The notes beneath the pieces are model-generated. The model searched no databases. It saw only the letters and a program-made list of their open reading frames with translations, and was not told where the DNA came from. The translations under genes were made by a program, and so were the position numbers. Shown one piece after another: positions 1 to 39,037 of a stretch of DNA of 39,037 nucleotides. Source of the stretch: Escherichia phage pO2. The stretch's first letter is position 1; every line of letters begins with the position of its first letter. Location: the sequence record OR228483.1; one strand, given 5' to 3'.

Positions 1-119
1 TAGTCAATAGGTAGTCTTAAATAATATTGATTAAGCTATCGTCGGCCCCATGGTGTAATAGGATATAGTCTTTGACTAACATGTCTCTGACCTTAAGTCT
101 ATAGCTTTGTGTCTATTAA

Positions 120-237
120 CTGTAGGTCTTTGACTGTAGGATGTGAGTGTCTTATGGTTGATACTGTAGGTTAGTCAGACTGTAGGTTGTAGGACTGTAG
201 GTTGTAGGACTGTAGGTTATAGGACCTATGGTTATAC
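120..237. repeat. Cluster of short CTGTAGG(T) direct repeats, including four tandem 15-bp units (GACTGTAGGTTGTAG-like) at 178..237; analogous in position to the short repeat arrays near T7 genome ends
   Basis: CTGTAGG at 120, 134, 164, 180, 195 and 210; 15-bp period read directly; lies beyond the last gene at the genome right end. Confidence 0.6.
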
Positions 238-455
238 AGATAGAGACTCAGAGACAGACCCATAGTCCCTACCTATCGTCCTGACCTCCAGCCATAGCCT
301 AGACCTATCGTTGACCTAACGTCTTGACCATCGGTACAACCTTATGATAGACTGGGGTAGGGCCTTTGGTCTGTACTTAAAGAGGGCCTATGGGGAGACT
401 TGAGGTTCTTGAACTGTGAGATGTGGTCTCAAACTTTTGGTCCAAAACTCATCGA

Positions 456-658: not shown

Positions 659-817
659 TTAATTACACTGAGACACCAGAGAACATACGAGAGTCTCGAC
701 CCACCCGACCCACTTACTTCCAGCAGTAACGCCAGCAGCAAGTAGAACAGCAGCAAGAAACCTGTATGTAGCTCGATTGGTCGCCAGAGCTTTAAGTACA
801 GCTTTGGTCTTTGCCAT
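659..817 (-). CDS. Small hydrophobic protein, 52 aa (gp19.5-like position, downstream of terminase)
   Basis: ATG at 817 preceded by AGGAGG; ORF MAKTKAVLKALATNRATYRFLAAVLLAAGVTAGSKW... to TAA at 659..661; below ORF-track size cut-off. Confidence 0.3.
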   Translation of the reverse strand: MAKTKAVLKALATNRATYRFLAAVLLAAGVTAGSKWVGWVETLVCSLVSQCN

Positions 818-997
818 ATGCTACATACCTCCTGTATCTATGGTCGGTGACTATCTGTATTGGAGGGATTATGATTAATATCACCCTCCTTCCATCGGTG
901 CAAGCCTTAGGTAAGAACTCGGAGTCTGCCTCCTAAGGTCTTGCATAAAGTCTGCATATGTATATTCACTACAGTAATACTATAAGTAACCGGGGGT

Positions 998-1020
998 CTT
1001 CCCTATAGTGATAGTTAAGT
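998..1020 (-). promoter_or_regulatory. Phage RNA polymerase promoter (phiOR-like, after terminase gene)
   Basis: Minus-strand read ACTTAACTATCACTATAGGGAAG matches the 11-copy promoter family. Confidence 0.6.
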
Positions 1021-1114
1021 CTAAACTCCTTGTAAAACAGTAGGTTAGACTGGTAGTAACTATAGGTTACTAACTGCTTATTAATTCAGTTTTCGCCTAT
1101 AGTTATTCATTCAG

Positions 1115-3308: not shown

Positions 3309-3367
3309 AGTTGCCCTCCCGGTTTATCAGATTTCACGTAGAGTCGCCTCCACTAGTTAGTGTTAAC

Positions 3368-3405
3368 CATAAAGGCCACTACATACAGTAATGACCTTGA
3401 GTCTA
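3368..3405 (-). promoter_or_regulatory. Conserved hairpin element (candidate RNase III processing site, R18.5-like), copy 1 of 3
   Basis: Shares CATAAAGGCCAC...TGACCTTGAGTCTA with copies at 26053 and 33439; stem pairs with G-U wobbles only in the minus-strand RNA. Confidence 0.45.
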
Positions 3406-3409
3406 ACAC

Positions 3410-3673
3410 TTATTGAACACCATACCCGGTGTCATTATCCTCAGTCGCTGAAAGCACCTTATCGTACTCTGCGTTCAGGGCCTCCATATCAGCCAGCGTC
3501 TTCTCGTCCACGGACACCTTGCTTAACACAAAGTTGTGACGAGCAAGCAGCTTCTCAATGGCGTTGTAAAGCTGGGGTGAACGCTTAGTGTCATCCCGCA
3601 GGTCTTGCAGCATGAGTCGAGCACGTTCAGTATCTAGCATTAAGAGGAACTTCTCTAAGTCCATCTGCGTCAT
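3410..3673 (-). CDS. gp18: Terminase small subunit (DNA maturase A)
   Basis: 87 aa, T7 gp18-like size and position; AAAGGAGG before ATG; start overlaps holin stop (ATGA). Confidence 0.85.
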   Translation of the reverse strand: MTQMDLEKFLLMLDTERARLMLQDLRDDTKRSPQLYNAIEKLLARHNFVLSKVSVDEKTLADMEALNAEYDKVLSATEDNDTGYGVQ

Positions 3674-26028: not shown

Positions 26029-26052
26029 GGTTAATCCTCCGTTTAGTCTAAT

Positions 26053-26088
26053 CATAAAGGCCACTCGATGTGAATGACCTTGAGTCTA
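26053..26088 (-). promoter_or_regulatory. Conserved hairpin element (candidate RNase III site, R4.7-like), copy 2 of 3
   Basis: CATAAAGGCCAC...TGACCTTGAGTCTA just upstream of the DNA polymerase gene. Confidence 0.45.
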
Positions 26089-26091
26089 GAC

Positions 26092-27971
<1,880 letters not shown>

Positions 27972-33404: not shown

Positions 33405-33438
33405 GGTGTAGCTCCTGATTGAATGAGTTAGGGTTAAT

Positions 33439-33476
33439 CATGAAGGCCACGACTTTGAGTCATGACCTTGAGTCTA
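33439..33476 (-). promoter_or_regulatory. Conserved hairpin element (candidate RNase III site, R1.1-like), copy 3 of 3
   Basis: CATGAAGGCCAC...TGACCTTGAGTCTA; minus-strand RNA forms a 12-bp stem AAGGUCAUGACU / AGUCGUGGCCUU with G-U wobbles. Confidence 0.5.
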
Positions 33477-33497
33477 ATCCTATAGTGATAGTTTAGG
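33475..33497 (-). promoter_or_regulatory. Phage RNA polymerase promoter (phi1.1-like; T7 replication-origin region equivalent)
   Basis: + strand CCTATAGTGATAGTTTAGGTTA. Confidence 0.65.
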
Positions 33498-33801: not shown

Positions 33802-36483
33802 TTAAGCGAATGCAAAGTCTGAAGACAAGATGTCCTCGATATTCAGTTTACCTTTCTTCGGAAGCTCAGGCAACTTGTCGCGCTGACTCTCGTGAAGCTG
33901 GTATTCGAACTGCTCGTAGAAGTCAAGCAGCACATCGTTGTCGCGGTAGGTCTCTACCATCGTCTCACGGACACCACGGAACAGATACTCAGCGTCAGCC
34001 GGGATGGTCCCGAAGCTATCGTGAATCACTGCGAATGACATCACGCCATACTTGCGGTGCGTGTGGACTACAGTCTTGCGGAGGTGGCTACCATCTTGTG
34101 AGTGGACGAAGTTCGGGCTAATGCCTGACTCCTGCTTGTGCTTGTCCAGCTCTTTCTTCGTACCTCTGTTGACGGTAGGTTGAAGGTTGAATGACCCTAA
34201 GAACATCAGGTTCAGACGAGTGGTATCTTTCTTGCGGTATTCCTGCCAGACCGGGAAACCATCAGGTGTGACCCAGTGTACCGGAAGGCATGGCTTCAGG
34301 ATTTCGCCAGTCTTCTTGTCCTTCACTTCAGCAGCCAGCAGCTTGGCAGCGCCTTGAAGCCACTTCATCGCGTCAACCGCAGCAACTACTGTCACACTCA
34401 CAGCTTCCCAAATCATCTTTGCCATGAAGCGAGACGCTTGGCTTGGCTCGGTGAACATTGCTCCCTTACCGGAGTCAATCGCTGGCATCACGGTGTCTTC
34501 GAACACTTGGTCGGCGAACCCATACTCTTTCGACCCGTAGGCCAGAGTCATGACCGAGCGCTTAGTGACCGAGCGAGACATACCGAATTGCAGCCACTGA
34601 CGGGCCAGCTCTCGTGTCCCCAGCTTGATACGTTCGGTAATCTCACCAGTTTTCTTATCCTCGTGAGTGACCATCTCGTTGTCAGTACCGTTAATCAGCA
34701 GGACTTTAAGCTCCTCCTCAATGCGGTCAGACACAATGCGGTAGATGTCTTGCACCTTACCGGATGGCGTCAGGTTTACTGCATGTCCACCGATGTGGTC
34801 ACGAAGCATCGCGCTGAAGTGCTGAATACCAGAGCATGACCCATCGAACGCTATCGGCAGCGAGCAGGAGTAAGACAGGCCGTGGTGCATTACGCCAGCA
34901 TACTCGAAGCAGAACGCGAGGAAACAGAACGGAGAGTCTAACTTGCCCCACCACTCAATACTATCCATCGGTGCCTTAGCAGCAGCCATGATGTTTTCGT
35001 GGTTGTCTTCCACCCACTTGATGCGCTCATCGAAGGTGACTTTATCGACACCCGCACAGTTTGCACCGTGGACCTTCAGCCATTTGAAACCGTCAGCACC
35101 AATAGGCTTGCCGACTGCCAGAGTCAGGAGACCCTTCTGCATGTCGTTACCCTGAGGGTTGAACATCGGGACAGCGTAGACACGACCTCGCCAATCCATG
35201 TTGTACGGGAACCAGATGGCCTTGAACTGAGAGAACTTGTTTGCTTGGTTAACGATAAAGCTCAGTGATAATCTGCGTGACTGTCTGGCCTTCTCGCGGC
35301 GATAGATACCAGCAGCAGCCTTCTTCCATGCCTTGAGTTCCTCCTCGGTCTCACCAGCATAGTCCTCAGGCTTCAGCGGTTCCATCTGAGGGATGTCATC
35401 AATAGGCGTGTTGTTCAGCTTCTCGACCATGTTCACCACGTCCAGAACCTTCTTGTTAACTTTCCAAGGTGTATTCTGAATGATGTTCACAGCGTCATAG
35501 ACTTCAGGCATGTATACGTCTTCATAACGTGCTACCGCAGACTTAGACCCTAAGCGAATCAATGGTAACGGTCTGCGACCTTTGGCCCAGTACCCACCAC
35601 CTACGACACCAGTCCACGGCTTAGGTGGAACGACGCAAGGCTGGTAGACTGGAGCGATACCCGCAAGGCTGAATCCTCGTTGTGCCATCTTCTTGACCCA
35701 GAAGTCTGACAGGTGGACCATCTCTACGTCAGCCGCTGCATTACCAGCACCGTACCGCTTAAGCTCGACCAGTTGTGTTGACTGGATGACAATCTCGAGC
35801 ATCTTGATGCCAACGTGGACAGCCTCTGTAGGACTCCAAGTCCCCCATGCATCTTCCAGTTGGCCTTGCTCCAGCATGGACGCCTCGACCGCTTGCATGT
35901 AGGCTTTCTTGTAGGATGCCCCAGCTCGCTTGTTCAGGTTCTCAGCTATCGCCTTCTTGAAGTGCTCCTTCTCTTTGTCACGGATGCGACCGAAGCGGAT
36001 TTCGTCCTCAAGTGTGCGACCTATCGCGGAGGCCATCGGTGTAATCGGTATCCCTTCAGGCTTGACCAGCTTGGAGAGTATGACCTTCAGTATGATAACC
36101 GCAGCGGACTCACAGGAGATGCGCATAGAGCGGTCCTTTACGGCCTTCTCTTCAGTGCTCAACATGGTGAACGCTACGCTAGGACGCGAGGTTGACAGCT
36201 TCCCGTCTGGGCCTTCATGCCACTCCTTGACGGCTTGCGCAATCTTAGGGACCAGAGTCTGCATCAAAGGCTTGGCGACCTGATTGTCTGCCAGTTCCCC
36301 GCGCTCAGTCTGTCGCTCAAGGTTCTTGATGAAACGTCGCTCGCCTTCTGTATATGCCTCATGCTCAAGCTGAAGCTGTTTGACTGCAAGGTCTTGCCCG
36401 TAGTGGTCAGCCAGCAGGTTAAACGGCTCAATGGCGTTCGACACATCAGAGAAGTCGTGTTTGTCAATAGAGATGACGCTCAT
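33802..36483 (-). CDS. gp1: Single-subunit DNA-directed RNA polymerase
   Basis: 893 aa; long identical blocks to T7/T3 RNA polymerase (PCVVPPKPWTG, FPYNMDWRGRVYA, AFDGSCSGIQHFSAM, HDSFGT, C-terminal FAFA). Confidence 0.98.
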   Translation of the reverse strand: MSVISIDKHDFSDVSNAIEPFNLLADHYGQDLAVKQLQLEHEAYTEGERRFIKNLERQTERGELADNQVAKPLMQTLVPKIAQAVKEWHEGPDGKLSTSRPSVAFTMLSTEEKAVKDRSMRISCESAAVIILKVILSKLVKPEGIPITPMASAIGRTLEDEIRFGRIRDKEKEHFKKAIAENLNKRAGASYKKAYMQAVEASMLEQGQLEDAWGTWSPTEAVHVGIKMLEIVIQSTQLVELKRYGAGNAAADVEMVHLSDFWVKKMAQRGFSLAGIAPVYQPCVVPPKPWTGVVGGGYWAKGRRPLPLIRLGSKSAVARYEDVYMPEVYDAVNIIQNTPWKVNKKVLDVVNMVEKLNNTPIDDIPQMEPLKPEDYAGETEEELKAWKKAAAGIYRREKARQSRRLSLSFIVNQANKFSQFKAIWFPYNMDWRGRVYAVPMFNPQGNDMQKGLLTLAVGKPIGADGFKWLKVHGANCAGVDKVTFDERIKWVEDNHENIMAAAKAPMDSIEWWGKLDSPFCFLAFCFEYAGVMHHGLSYSCSLPIAFDGSCSGIQHFSAMLRDHIGGHAVNLTPSGKVQDIYRIVSDRIEEELKVLLINGTDNEMVTHEDKKTGEITERIKLGTRELARQWLQFGMSRSVTKRSVMTLAYGSKEYGFADQVFEDTVMPAIDSGKGAMFTEPSQASRFMAKMIWEAVSVTVVAAVDAMKWLQGAAKLLAAEVKDKKTGEILKPCLPVHWVTPDGFPVWQEYRKKDTTRLNLMFLGSFNLQPTVNRGTKKELDKHKQESGISPNFVHSQDGSHLRKTVVHTHRKYGVMSFAVIHDSFGTIPADAEYLFRGVRETMVETYRDNDVLLDFYEQFEYQLHESQRDKLPELPKKGKLNIEDILSSDFAFA

Positions 36484-36503
36484 ACTTAAAGTCCTTGTTA
36501 TTA

Positions 36504-36544
36504 GTCTTTCACTTAGAGTCTCTTTGGTCTTTCACTTGGAGTCT
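36504..36544 (-). repeat. Two 18-bp direct repeats (GTCTTTCACTT[A/G]GAGTCT) in the RNA polymerase gene leader
   Basis: Units at 36504..36521 and 36527..36544, 17/18 identical. Confidence 0.6.
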
Positions 36545-36552
36545 TAGACCTT

Positions 36553-36575
36553 GAGTCCTATAGTGATAGTTTAGT
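36553..36575 (-). promoter_or_regulatory. Phage RNA polymerase promoter directly upstream of the RNA polymerase gene
   Basis: + strand GTCCTATAGTGATAGTTTAGTC, full match to the promoter family. Confidence 0.6.
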
Positions 36576-36580
36576 CATAA

Positions 36581-36907
36581 TTACTTGCATATCAATGGGT
36601 TAGCGTGAAGATGACTGAAGTCACCATGAGTCGTGTGCTTGATGGTTGACCGTTGGTCTATCGCCTTCCAGCCTGAGACCAGAAGTTTACCATCGTCTGT
36701 GATTGGTCGTCCACCATACGCCAGACACATCAGCTCGGACTTATGGCCCTCGGCCCGGAGTCTTGCTTGCAGAACCCGGTCGCGCTCCTGCTGTTGACGT
36801 GCGGTGTGACTTGACGTTCCGTGACGATACCCTGTAGCCAGTAGGCTTAACATGTTCATTTCTGCGTCCATAGAGTGTACCAGATTAATCCCGTATGATT
36901 TGTTCAT
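36581..36907 (-). CDS. Hypothetical early protein, 108 aa
   Basis: ATG at 36907 overlaps upstream stop (TAATG); no motif recognised. Confidence 0.5.
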   Translation of the reverse strand: MNKSYGINLVHSMDAEMNMLSLLATGYRHGTSSHTARQQQERDRVLQARLRAEGHKSELMCLAYGGRPITDDGKLLVSGWKAIDQRSTIKHTTHGDFSHLHANPLICK

Positions 36908-37104
36908 TACAGTTTGCTCCCAAGTGTTGCTATATCCCAGACGTTCGCTAAATTGCGCAGGAATCGTCCGTTAGGTTGACGTACAGTCCAGCGGACCATA
37001 CGTACATAGTTGAATTTATAGACTTTACGCGCTTTGTTGATGTCTCTCATCAGCATGTAGGCGATAAGTCCATAGCCTATGGCTATCAATAGTTCGATAC
37101 TCAT
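36907..37104 (-). CDS. Small early membrane protein, 65 aa
   Basis: N-terminal hydrophobic segment LLIAIGYGLIAYMLM, then basic tail. Confidence 0.5.
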   Translation of the reverse strand: MSIELLIAIGYGLIAYMLMRDINKARKVYKFNYVRMVRWTVRQPNGRFLRNLANVWDIATLGSKL

Positions 37105-37190
37105 AGTGATTTCCGTTTAATACAGTCGTATAACCCATAGCCTATCATCCAGACAACTGGCGCTAGGCAGACCCAATATCCCAAACTCAT
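37101..37190 (-). CDS. Small hydrophobic peptide, 29 aa
   Basis: Hand-found: ATG 37190 preceded by GGAG; MSLGYWVCLAPVVWMIGYGLYDCIKRKSL; stop overlaps next start (ATGA). Confidence 0.3.
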   Translation of the reverse strand: MSLGYWVCLAPVVWMIGYGLYDCIKRKSL

Positions 37191-37264
37191 AGTTAACTCC
37201 TATCAATTTAAGTGATAATCTTCGAGGCCACCTATCAGTCGATGACCTCTCGTCTATCACTCTC

Positions 37265-37636
37265 CTACACTTCCACCGCTACGGTAGTCATCTTGGTCAC
37301 AGTAAGGCCACCAGCAAGCTCGACCGCATAGCGTATCGCCTCGTCTTTGGACCTGAAATCTTTTCCAGCAAGGTGGTAAATATCACCGTTTATTACTTTG
37401 GTCGGCTTGCGGCTGACTGCTATGGCGTTGCTAAGGGAAAGCTCACCCTTCAACCACTGAGAGTGCCAGCGGCATACGCTCTTAGGAGATACGTTGAAGT
37501 CACTGGCCACCTTCGCAAGCACAGAGTTAAGTCTAGAAGAGCTGCATTGAGGCTGGCGCACCAAGTCGTATGCCTTTGCTACTCGGATTTTAAACTCGAC
37601 CGTGTAGCTGTTGCGGGCTGTCGTAGTTGTGTTCAT
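37265..37636 (-). CDS. Early helix-turn-helix (HTH) DNA-binding protein, 123 aa; HTH resembles the IS3-family OrfA / transposase_8 type
   Basis: YTVEFKIRVAKAY...LNSVLAKVASDFNVSPKSVCRWHSQW pattern; AAGGA before ATG; sits where T7 has gene 0.7. Confidence 0.6.
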   Translation of the reverse strand: MNTTTTARNSYTVEFKIRVAKAYDLVRQPQCSSSRLNSVLAKVASDFNVSPKSVCRWHSQWLKGELSLSNAIAVSRKPTKVINGDIYHLAGKDFRSKDEAIRYAVELAGGLTVTKMTTVAVEV

Positions 37637-37666
37637 GAGTGTATCCTTTTGTTAATTAATTAAATA

Positions 37667-37715
37667 AGTGACAATCAGTCAGGCCCCTCAGTCAAAGGGC
37701 CTGTAGTCTATCACT
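37667..37715 (-). promoter_or_regulatory. Early-region conserved hairpin element (candidate RNase III site), copy 1 of 3
   Basis: AGTGACAATCAGTCAGG ... CCTGTAGTCTATCACT with inner perfect hairpin GGCCC-N10-GGGCC. Confidence 0.4.
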
Positions 37716-37860
37716 CAGCGTGTAAACTATCGTGTATGCGCTTGCGTCTCCTGTAGACCACTTTCAAGAGACGCATGGCCTCCTCGTGGTTTAACCGCCC
37801 GGTTTTGACCAAAATCCTGGCGTTGGTGACGTGGTGCTGGCAGAGACCATAAGTTACCAT
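37711..37860 (-). CDS. Small basic protein, 49 aa, translationally coupled to the Ocr-like gene
   Basis: Hand-found: ATG 37860 overlaps Ocr stop (TGATG); [49 protein letters not shown]. Confidence 0.3.
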   Translation of the reverse strand: MVTYGLCQHHVTNARILVKTGRLNHEEAMRLLKVVYRRRKRIHDSLHAE

Positions 37861-38363
37861 CACTCGCAATCCTCAGCAGCAGGGTCAAACACTACGTTAT
37901 CGTTGATGTCTTCCACCTTCAGGTGGCGACCTATCGCATAGAAGTCTTTTGCACATGCAGTAGCGACCTCAAGAGCTACAGCTTGCACAATTATTTCGCC
38001 TGTTTTAGCGTCAACTACCCAATATTCATCCTCTTCGTCTGCCTCTTCATCCTCAAACCAGACTACATCCAAGCTATTAGACACATCGTTATAAAGCGCC
38101 TCATAGATGCGAGCTTGTAGGATACGCGTTACGTCCTTGGTTTCAGGCATCAGCCCAGAGTCTTCGAACTCGTGGTCTATACCATCAGCAGCCATCACCG
38201 TGAAAATCTCGTGGTAATAGTTCGGGACCTGACCGTCTACGACCTCATGCAGCGCATCGCTGTAGTCATCGCCTTCAGCTATTTCGTCGTACTGAATACG
38301 CTCATTGAACATCTCAACGGTTGCAGCCAGCAGCTCATAGTATGCGTTAGCATTACGTTCCAT
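37860..38363 (-). CDS. ocr: Ocr-like anti-restriction (DNA mimic) protein with about 50-aa C-terminal extension
   Basis: Residues ~15-115 match T7 Ocr ([43 protein letters not shown], acidic tract); 167 aa versus 117 in T7; GAGGA before ATG. Confidence 0.85.
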
Positions 38364-38384
38364 AGTTATATCCTCTCAGTTGTT

Positions 38385-38434
38385 AGTGACTATCAGTCAG
38401 GCCGCTATGAGTTAACGACCTGTAGTTAATCACT
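38385..38434 (-). promoter_or_regulatory. Early-region conserved hairpin element, copy 2 of 3
   Basis: AGTGACTATCAGTCAGG ... CCTGTAGTTAATCACT. Confidence 0.4.
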
Positions 38435-38435
38435 C

Positions 38436-38690
38436 TCAGTTAGCGAAATAAGGAGCTGAGACGCCCGCTGTAGGACTCACGGCTATCTGCGAGTCTATCA
38501 GGTAGGTCTCGTTGTCTATACGCACAGTATCTACGCTGTAGTTGCTGAACGGCTTGCTTGAGACCTTGCGCACTACCACACGGTGACGCGCTCCTGTCAT
38601 CTCTTTAAGCTGAATCCACGCATAACCTTTAGTGTTCACGAATACGTCATTGCGATTAGTGATTGTGCTTAAGTGTTTCATAGTGTCCAT
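38436..38690 (-). CDS. Hypothetical first early protein, 84 aa, upstream of ocr
   Basis: Weak ribosome-binding site; no recognisable motif; position has no T7 counterpart. Confidence 0.45.
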   Translation of the reverse strand: MDTMKHLSTITNRNDVFVNTKGYAWIQLKEMTGARHRVVVRKVSSKPFSNYSVDTVRIDNETYLIDSQIAVSPTAGVSAPYFAN

Positions 38691-38700
38691 CCGTTAAGTT

Positions 38701-38757
38701 AGTGACTATCAGTCAGGGCCTTCAGATGTAGACTCAAAGACCCTGTAGTTAGTCGCT
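38701..38757 (-). promoter_or_regulatory. Early-region conserved hairpin element, copy 3 of 3
   Basis: AGTGACTATCAGTCAGGG ... CCCTGTAGTTAGTCGCT. Confidence 0.4.
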
Positions 38758-38873
38758 ATCGGCGCACATTAAGAGTTTATCCAGATTGTTAAAGAGCATT
38801 CCCTTCAGTCAGAGGACTTCAGGTAGACCATTTCAGTGTTGGTCATCACCGTTGTTTCGTGTTGATGTGGTAC

Positions 38874-38903
38874 ATACTACTTTAAGTCGGTACATCTTGT
38901 CAA
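38874..38903 (-). promoter_or_regulatory. Candidate host sigma70 early promoter (A-promoter analog)
   Basis: Minus-strand read TTGACA, 18-bp spacer, TAGTAT; upstream of all early genes. Confidence 0.3.
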
Positions 38904-39037
38904 CTACTTTCTGTCATCTGCCTGTTGTTCGTATGACTTATCAGGCTGTCTACTTAACCGGGATGACCCGGCGTCTTCACTATCCGGTTGTTGCCGTGTC
39001 GTGTTGACGGAAGCTATTAAGCCATAGTCTAGACCTG

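Follow-up and report, generated by a model that had tools for sequence, protein, structure and literature searches.

Is the short open reading frame (ORF) that lies ahead of ocr in the genome of Escherichia phage pO2 a real early gene or an untranslated leader and, if it is a gene, what might its product do? Ocr (T7 gp0.3) and SAM lyase (T3 gp0.3) are the first-expressed anti-restriction proteins of T7-like phages. The window analyzed here is the complete sequence record OR228483.1 (39,037 nt), which represents a whole K1F-like genome (Kayfunavirus, Autographiviridae) whose genes lie on the minus strand. An 84-codon ORF, running from ATG to TGA, occupies positions 38436..38690 (-), directly upstream of an Ocr homolog and downstream of the promoter-like sequence TTGACA-18-TAGTAT. 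The initial annotation, which had placed such an ORF between a putative host promoter and ocr, is confirmed in this respect.

Identity and Start Codon of Gene 0.2

The ORF is the ortholog of gene 0.2 of phage K1F, with 96% amino-acid identity between the two products. The K1F gene spans positions 785..1030 of record AM084414 and encodes 81 aa under the name 'gp0.2 protein' (CAJ29341). The description of the gene as unknown in the initial annotation agrees with most records of K1F-like phages, where it is called hypothetical, but the gene has in fact been known since AM084414. The match to phrog_10124 (E 1.2e-39) extends over residues 4-84 of the ORF and over profile positions 1-77 of 77. The similarity to the K1F gp0.2/phrog_10124 family is thus full-length and, like the other members, the product is a small single-domain protein from the early region of a lytic phage.

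A search of a literature library for gp0.2 and phrog_10124 found no phage paper, and neither K1F nor gp0.2 is mentioned in the supplements of Silas et al. (2023). Two proteins from published work were considered and rejected. The orf24 product of Silas et al. (2023), which is encoded next to ocr and triggers cell death, is a different protein, whose model starts MFKHEIYTDCNKSAK, and JSS1_004 (mBio 2025) is a homolog of the gp0.7 kinase and irrelevant to gp0.2.

Although the 84-codon ORF itself stands, the protein is not of 84 aa as initially proposed. Sequence comparison places its start at the second ATG (38681), which gives a product of 81 aa. This start is supported by the K1F annotation, by the homologs from outside Kayfunavirus, which align there, and by phage ECG4, which lacks the first ATG. 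The PHROG alignment begins at residue 4 of the 84-codon ORF.

We estimated the strength of the Shine-Dalgarno (SD) sequence as the duplex energy of the 18 nt before each ATG against the 16S anti-SD. The values were -5.7 kcal/mol for the second ATG, +0.6 for the first and -5.8 for ocr, to be read against a median of -6.9 for 28 long minus-strand ORFs and -2.7 kcal/mol for random positions. Each homolog has its own SD 6-10 nt ahead of the aligned ATG. The ribosome-binding site of gene 0.2 is ordinary and as strong as that of ocr; the weak site reported earlier had been read from the wrong ATG, whereas the second one is served by GGAUGGA.

Layout of the Early Region

The 1.4 kb around gene 0.2 are 91-94% identical to K1F-like phages. 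The window is circularly permuted relative to K1F, with K1F nt 1-433 corresponding to window positions 421..1 and K1F 435-1820 to 39036..37665, so that the region upstream of gene 0.2 continues from 39037 at window 421..1. The features of the region are collected in table 1. The doubtful 'gp0.1' ORF of K1F (K1F 352-567) would cross the window junction 1|39037, and its counterpart in Citrobacter phage CR44b (gene 0.01) is marked as a pseudogene.

Table 1. Predicted features of the early region of pO2 and further RNase III-type hairpins in the window
Feature	Position	Strand	Basis and remarks
Sigma-70-type early promoter candidate, TTGACA-18-TAGTAT	38903..38874	-	10/12 consensus matches; counterpart of T7 A promoters
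RNase III-type hairpin upstream of gene 0.2	38698..38760	-	Fold, T7-like architecture, compensatory pairs; 61 bits (training sequence)
Shine-Dalgarno sequence GGAUGGA for the ATG at 38681	38686..38692	-	-5.7 kcal/mol; contains the unused first ATG (38690-38688)
Gene 0.2, predicted CDS, 81 codons + TGA	38436..38681	-	K1F gp0.2/phrog_10124 family; small basic all-beta protein (model)
RNase III-type hairpin between gene 0.2 and ocr	38382..38437	-	Fold, consensus structure; 69.6 bits (training sequence); begins within the gene 0.2 stop codon
ocr-like DNA-mimic anti-restriction gene (gene 0.3), 167 aa	37860..38363	-	PF08684, E 5.5e-31, residues 7-95; phrog_2568, E 4.7e-54
RNase III-type hairpin after small 0.35-like ORF	37664..37718	-	Fold z-score -5.5; 63.6 bits (training sequence)
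Fourth early RNase III-type hairpin	37208..37264	-	Fold; 64.1 bits (training sequence)
Three new RNase III-type hairpins	3356-3413, 26042-26094, 33427-33484	-	Covariance model, 38-52 bits

The promoter candidate is the best sigma-70-like site of the region and its sole strong one by simple consensus match, the circular junction included. The same kind of scan found no comparable promoter in the upstream continuation (window 421..1). The -35 hexamer and its surroundings are kept in 11 of 12 aligned Kayfunavirus loci, and the predicted site combines the features of T7 A-type promoters, namely -35 and -10 consensus, a spacing (18 nt) within the range of 16-18 nt and conservation in relatives. The ORF therefore qualifies as first early gene in the sense that it lies behind the one sigma-70-like site that scores as strong in the consensus scan.

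The Ocr homolog of the window has 167 aa, compared with 117 in T7, 114 in CR44b and 111 in ECG4. The Pfam ocr domain spans only residues 7-95, and the K1F-type protein carries a C-terminal extension of ~70 residues. In phage LM33_P1, the gene at the ocr position (LT594300 1121-1624, 167 aa) is mislabeled 'Phage protein kinase'; in RefSeq (NC_031937) it is given as ocr-like.

Evidence for a Protein-Coding Gene

Length is uninformative for an ORF of this size: both strands of the window carry numerous ORFs of 50-96 aa that overlap real genes. An untranslated ORF, in a non-coding leader or spacer that links the promoter to ocr, would agree with the frequency of such chance ORFs, with the lack of an SD sequence at the first ATG and with the fact that gene 0.2 is left out of the annotation of K1F in GenBank DQ111067 and of ECG4. 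The comparison with related genomes, however, speaks against it. A phmmer-type search gave 33 homolog clusters with 61-95% identity, nearly all of 81-92 aa, and tblastn located gene 0.2 in 103 phage records, of which some 85 bear the organism names of Kayfunavirus-like phages. The taxa concerned are Kayfunavirus, Klebsiella Przondovirus, Ermolevavirus phiKT, Phapecoctavirus myoviruses of ~150 kb and N4-like Gamaleyavirus.

In 20 loci of five named genera the frame stays open across the homologous stretch, with SD6 and cp26 as exceptions, and it is also kept in three metagenomic podophage contigs. The SD6 copy (901-1101) has a premature stop at codon 64, while in the Klebsiella phage cp26 the C-terminal third has been swapped for unrelated sequence, resulting in a recombinant frame of 120 codons. 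Three further variants, of 70 aa, lack the APYF tail. Judging from their sequences, the truncated copies may mean either that the tail is dispensable or that these copies are decaying.

In a codon alignment of 18 sequences, the numbers of variable columns at codon positions 1, 2 and 3 were 45, 41 and 78 of 81. Between the window and Przondovirus (Klebsiella phages), dN is ~0.24 with dS saturated, and omega is ~0.1 where computable. Within Kayfunavirus, pairwise omega is noisy, ranging from 0.3 to 1.7 on 4-16 substitutions, which are too few for stable ratios. Moreover, the protein is 50-70% identical in unrelated phage backbones whose flanking DNA is not homologous. Such amino-acid identity between non-homologous flanks, the excess of third-position variation, the contrast between dN and dS and the presence of a proper SD at the aligned ATG in every homolog all argue against a leader.

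These patterns indicate that gene 0.2 is under purifying selection and is a genuine protein-coding gene. Because the frame is conserved under such selection across distant phages, the non-coding leader, one of the two alternatives left by the initial annotation, is excluded for practical purposes, and we give it a negligible probability. The check it had proposed, conservation in related genomes, found the frame kept and thereby favors its other alternative, a real early protein. On the evidence of the alignments, we regard a real, translated early gene forming part of a cassette as almost certain.

RNase III-Type Hairpins around Gene 0.2

Gene 0.2 is flanked on both sides by hairpins of one type, at 38698-38760 upstream and 38382-38437 downstream. 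Four such hairpins are found in the early region, all between ORFs and on the transcribed strand, and they share one shape, in which an asymmetric internal loop separates a lower stem of 8-10 bp from an upper stem of ~10 bp. This is the two-turn hairpin architecture (lower stem, internal loop, upper stem) of T7-type RNase III sites. Segments of T7 near nt 890, 1468 and 3138 have the identical fold and partly the same sequence, for example GAGUGAUAGACU...CCU..UGAU.AUCACU. These segments correspond to the RNase III sites R0.3, R0.5 and R1, as reported by Dunn and Studier (1983). In the joint alignment, compensatory changes were present in half of the consensus pairs (9/18). An Rfam scan of window positions 36000-39037 matched no family, RNase III hairpins being without an Rfam model.

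A covariance model was trained on seven sequences, that is, the four early sites of pO2 and the three T7 sites. It gave seven strong matches in the window (E <=1e-6), all on the minus, transcribed strand, and four of them are the training sites themselves; matches on the plus strand had E >0.1. The three new hairpins are probably counterparts of the middle and late sites of T7. Polycistronic transcripts of T7 are processed at ten such sites (PMC6938266), and the seven sites in the window fit this pattern of about ten. The hairpin that the initial annotation had described as conserved and as separating the ORF from ocr is indeed present, but as one of seven sites of T7 type, with another one upstream of the gene.

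The internal loops of such sites limit RNase III to a single cut, and the 3' hairpin that is left protects the upstream RNA (PMC1540722). By analogy with T7, the host RNA polymerase would start at the sigma-70-type promoter (38903-38874) while the front end of the genome is passing into the cell, and host RNase III would cut the early polycistronic transcript in both flanking internal loops, at ~38711 and ~38395. These cuts would release a monocistronic 0.2 mRNA of ~317 nt (~0.32 kb), shielded from exonucleases by its 3' hairpin, and gp0.2 would be made before Ocr or together with it, in the first minutes of infection. The likeness to T7 makes processing of this kind, with a monocistronic 0.2 mRNA, quite probable.

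An Optional Cassette ahead of ocr

The promoter and leader of CR44b are 96.7% identical to those of the window. In CR44b, a single hairpin is followed at once by the ocr ribosome-binding site and ATG known from the window, and gene 0.2 is missing. The CR44b leader runs straight to ocr. To obtain the arrangement of the window, gene 0.2 and another hairpin have to be added to that of CR44b, and the point of joining falls in a repeat: both hairpins flanking the gene have 3' halves that are identical 20-mers (38698-38717 and 38382-38401). Gene 0.2 and one hairpin thus constitute an optional cassette, whose boundaries lie within these repeated 3' halves. The leader is present in 172 phage records versus 103 for gene 0.2.

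In other relatives that share this promoter and leader, the first slot is taken by a SAM-lyase-type gene (CHRF_30116.2) or by an unrelated 105-aa gene (Cronobacter phage Dev2). The gene downstream of gene 0.2 is not ocr in ST31, SD6 or Enterobacter phage 03, and other phages carry different genes behind an R0.3-type hairpin. Gene 0.2 therefore forms an accessory module independent of ocr, whose exchange probably takes place by recombination at RNase III sites. The Dev2 protein called 'gp0.2' was rejected as a homolog, being unrelated despite its name.

The segment before gene 0.2 in Vec13 (upstream of 1277) is ~490 nt longer than that of K1F and cannot be aligned with the shared promoter and leader, a layout consistent with module shuffling at hairpins. 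The hairpin ahead of gene 0.2 in Vec13 bears an R0.3-type upper stem. Should a gene be present in the additional sequence, gene 0.2 would not come first among the early genes of this phage.

Another gene of the window, encoding 123 aa (37265-37636, -), is flanked by the RNase III-type hairpins at 37664-37718 and 37208-37264. It gave weak helix-turn-helix matches (HTH_23, E 0.004) and has no counterpart in K1F; its best full-length matches in the phage database are ~57% identical. A homolog of this gene, mislabeled 'gp0.2', fills the first early slot in Dev2. From its sequence context, it looks like a second hairpin-bounded cassette.

Gene 0.2 is immediately upstream of ocr in ~50 Kayfunavirus genomes. 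The Przondovirus homolog comes first from the genome end, that of phiKT lies directly behind an S-adenosylmethionine lyase gene (PF23780, E 2e-24), and that of the N4-like phage EC1-UPM is located in the early region, near the RNAP1 subunits. In three distant metagenomic podophages the homolog is upstream of a single-subunit RNA polymerase, and two of the three have a non-coding gap of ~1 kb with the homolog as the first gene behind it. Copies were confined to phages, as none was found in plasmids (tblastn) or E. coli genomes (blastn). Some records of these loci are mislabeled: the phiKT SAM lyase (2005-2499) appears as 'SAM-dependent methyltransferase' with a tape-measure note, and the 0.2 region of SHAK7854 as 'N4-like RNA polymerase'.

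Properties of the gp0.2 Protein

An AlphaFold2 model built with 26 sequences is all-beta, with six strands (pLDDT 79, pTM 0.67) and low confidence in the last 15 residues. The protein is basic (pI 9.7, net charge +4), as is the family (pI ~9-10, net +3 to +8), and hydrophilic throughout; the Ocr homolog, by comparison, has a pI of 4.1 and a net charge of -34. Across the wide family, the conserved core consists of LS near the N-terminus followed by RK-x2-SK-x-FSN-x-S-x-D-x-VR-x5-YLIDS. A C-terminal ...SAPYF(A)N tail is kept in one subfamily, which includes phiKT and some distant members. Judged from its sequence, this conserved and presumably disordered tail could be a linear docking motif.

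Scans of gp0.2 against Pfam, NCBIfam and PADLOC matched no family, and a PDB sequence profile gave a chance match only (E 0.79). Compared with the PDB, the model had no significant fold similarity to any solved structure, anti-defense and host-takeover proteins included. An exhaustive HMM search matched no more than 17 proteins among 1.84 billion representatives; one of them, of 1147 aa, is an SH3_5-repeat amidase. A profile search of 5.8 billion gave 76 clusters, all of 63-100 aa and unannotated.

Among predicted structures (BFVD), the fold matches were all uncharacterized small early proteins of podophages (E 2.8e-6 to 3e-2, TM 0.57-0.72). They come from Lelliottia phage (phD2B_003), Acinetobacter phages B09_Aci08 and APK87 and Proteus phage PmP19, and share the predicted fold with gp0.2 at a sequence identity of just 15-31%; phD2B_003 is also a weak sequence match.

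Three assignments were considered and rejected. Membership in SH3_5 (PF08460) rested on a local match to a GYAW hairpin that is confined to one subfamily. An Ocr-type DNA mimic would be acidic and belong to PF08684, whereas gp0.2 is basic and without Pfam match. The membrane annotation given in phage Pipis is unsupported by the soluble all-beta model.

Possible Roles of gp0.2

Taken as a whole, the locus is best explained as a coding cassette that is released by RNase III and serves host takeover or counter-defense, an explanation to which we assign slightly better than an even chance. The role itself, inferred from position and neighborhood, stands at about even chances. It is suggested because the gene is repeatedly the first of an early operon beside Ocr or SAM lyase, and because it is accessory, mobile and limited to lytic phages. 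As the whole region is 'early' in T7-like phages, adjacency to ocr is in itself weak evidence for function. We propose that gp0.2 may be an accessory factor that binds a host macromolecule, its folded beta core displaying the conserved RK-x2-SK-x-FSN...VR-x5-YLIDS surface. More tentatively, the family could represent an unrecognized counter-defense or host-shut-off protein without detectable relative among solved structures, which we hold to be possible but rather doubtful.

Other roles would fit parts of the evidence. The basic charge means that gp0.2 is not a DNA mimic but leaves room for a small nucleic-acid-binding protein, with a basic SH3-like or Sso7d-like beta domain, that would guard or mark the entering genome end or modulate host transcription or RNA processing instead of blocking a defense protein. 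Such a role is unlikely, as the basic charge is unspecific, the SH3_5 match stems from a GYAW hairpin limited to one subfamily, and the structure matched no nucleic-acid-binding fold significantly. An early, accessory and horizontally mobile small gene restricted to lytic phages might also be expected to act in competition between phages, through superinfection exclusion or the blocking of co-infecting phages, rather than against host immunity. With a soluble all-beta model that has no membrane segment or signal peptide, and a PADLOC scan of gp0.2 without match, we consider this improbable.

Still less probable is a partnership with Ocr, in which gp0.2 would be a helper or a shield against Ocr-sensing defenses such as PARIS. 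The position of the gene immediately 5' of ocr in the ~50 Kayfunavirus genomes and the opposite charges of the two proteins (+4 versus -34) would agree with it. However, there is no adjacent ocr in ST31, SD6, Enterobacter phage 03, Przondovirus, phiKT, the N4-like phages or Phapecoctavirus, and ocr occurs without gene 0.2 in CR44b and T7; since each gene is found without the other, a role tied to Ocr is unlikely.

If the more tentative reading, an unrecognized counter-defense or host-shut-off protein, is true, selection in several lineages of Autographiviridae would have favored gp0.2 as the very first product of the incoming genome, its cassette would have spread to N4-like and large myovirus genomes, and its target may act earlier than the restriction systems blocked by Ocr or without depending on them. 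To what was known of the gene, our analysis adds purifying selection, a normal ribosome-binding site, a discrete cassette with RNase III sites at its boundaries and a first-expressed position in several phage lineages. The product has no recognizable relative of known function, and its neighbors are known anti-restriction genes. Both K1F-like phages and the Klebsiella phages of Przondovirus figure in therapy work, and an accessory first-expressed gene could alter host range against strains with particular defenses.

Comparison with Known Systems

The gp0.2 protein shares neither sequence nor fold similarity with Ocr or SAM lyase, and it is basic and without enzyme-like features; nevertheless, its gene takes the same first-expressed slot as theirs and adjoins one or the other. 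In K1F, the 81-aa gene 0.2 (96% identity) sits in the same slot, between the leader hairpin and gene 0.3, and we found no substantive difference between the two phages. The class I operon of T7 (promoters A1-A3, sites R0.3, R0.5 and R1, ocr first) resembles the early region of pO2 in its sigma-70 promoter, in the design of its hairpins, whose sequence is partly shared with the window, and in the early position of ocr. The two differ in that T7 has one hairpin and then ocr directly, whereas in pO2 an additional gene and an additional hairpin are interposed.
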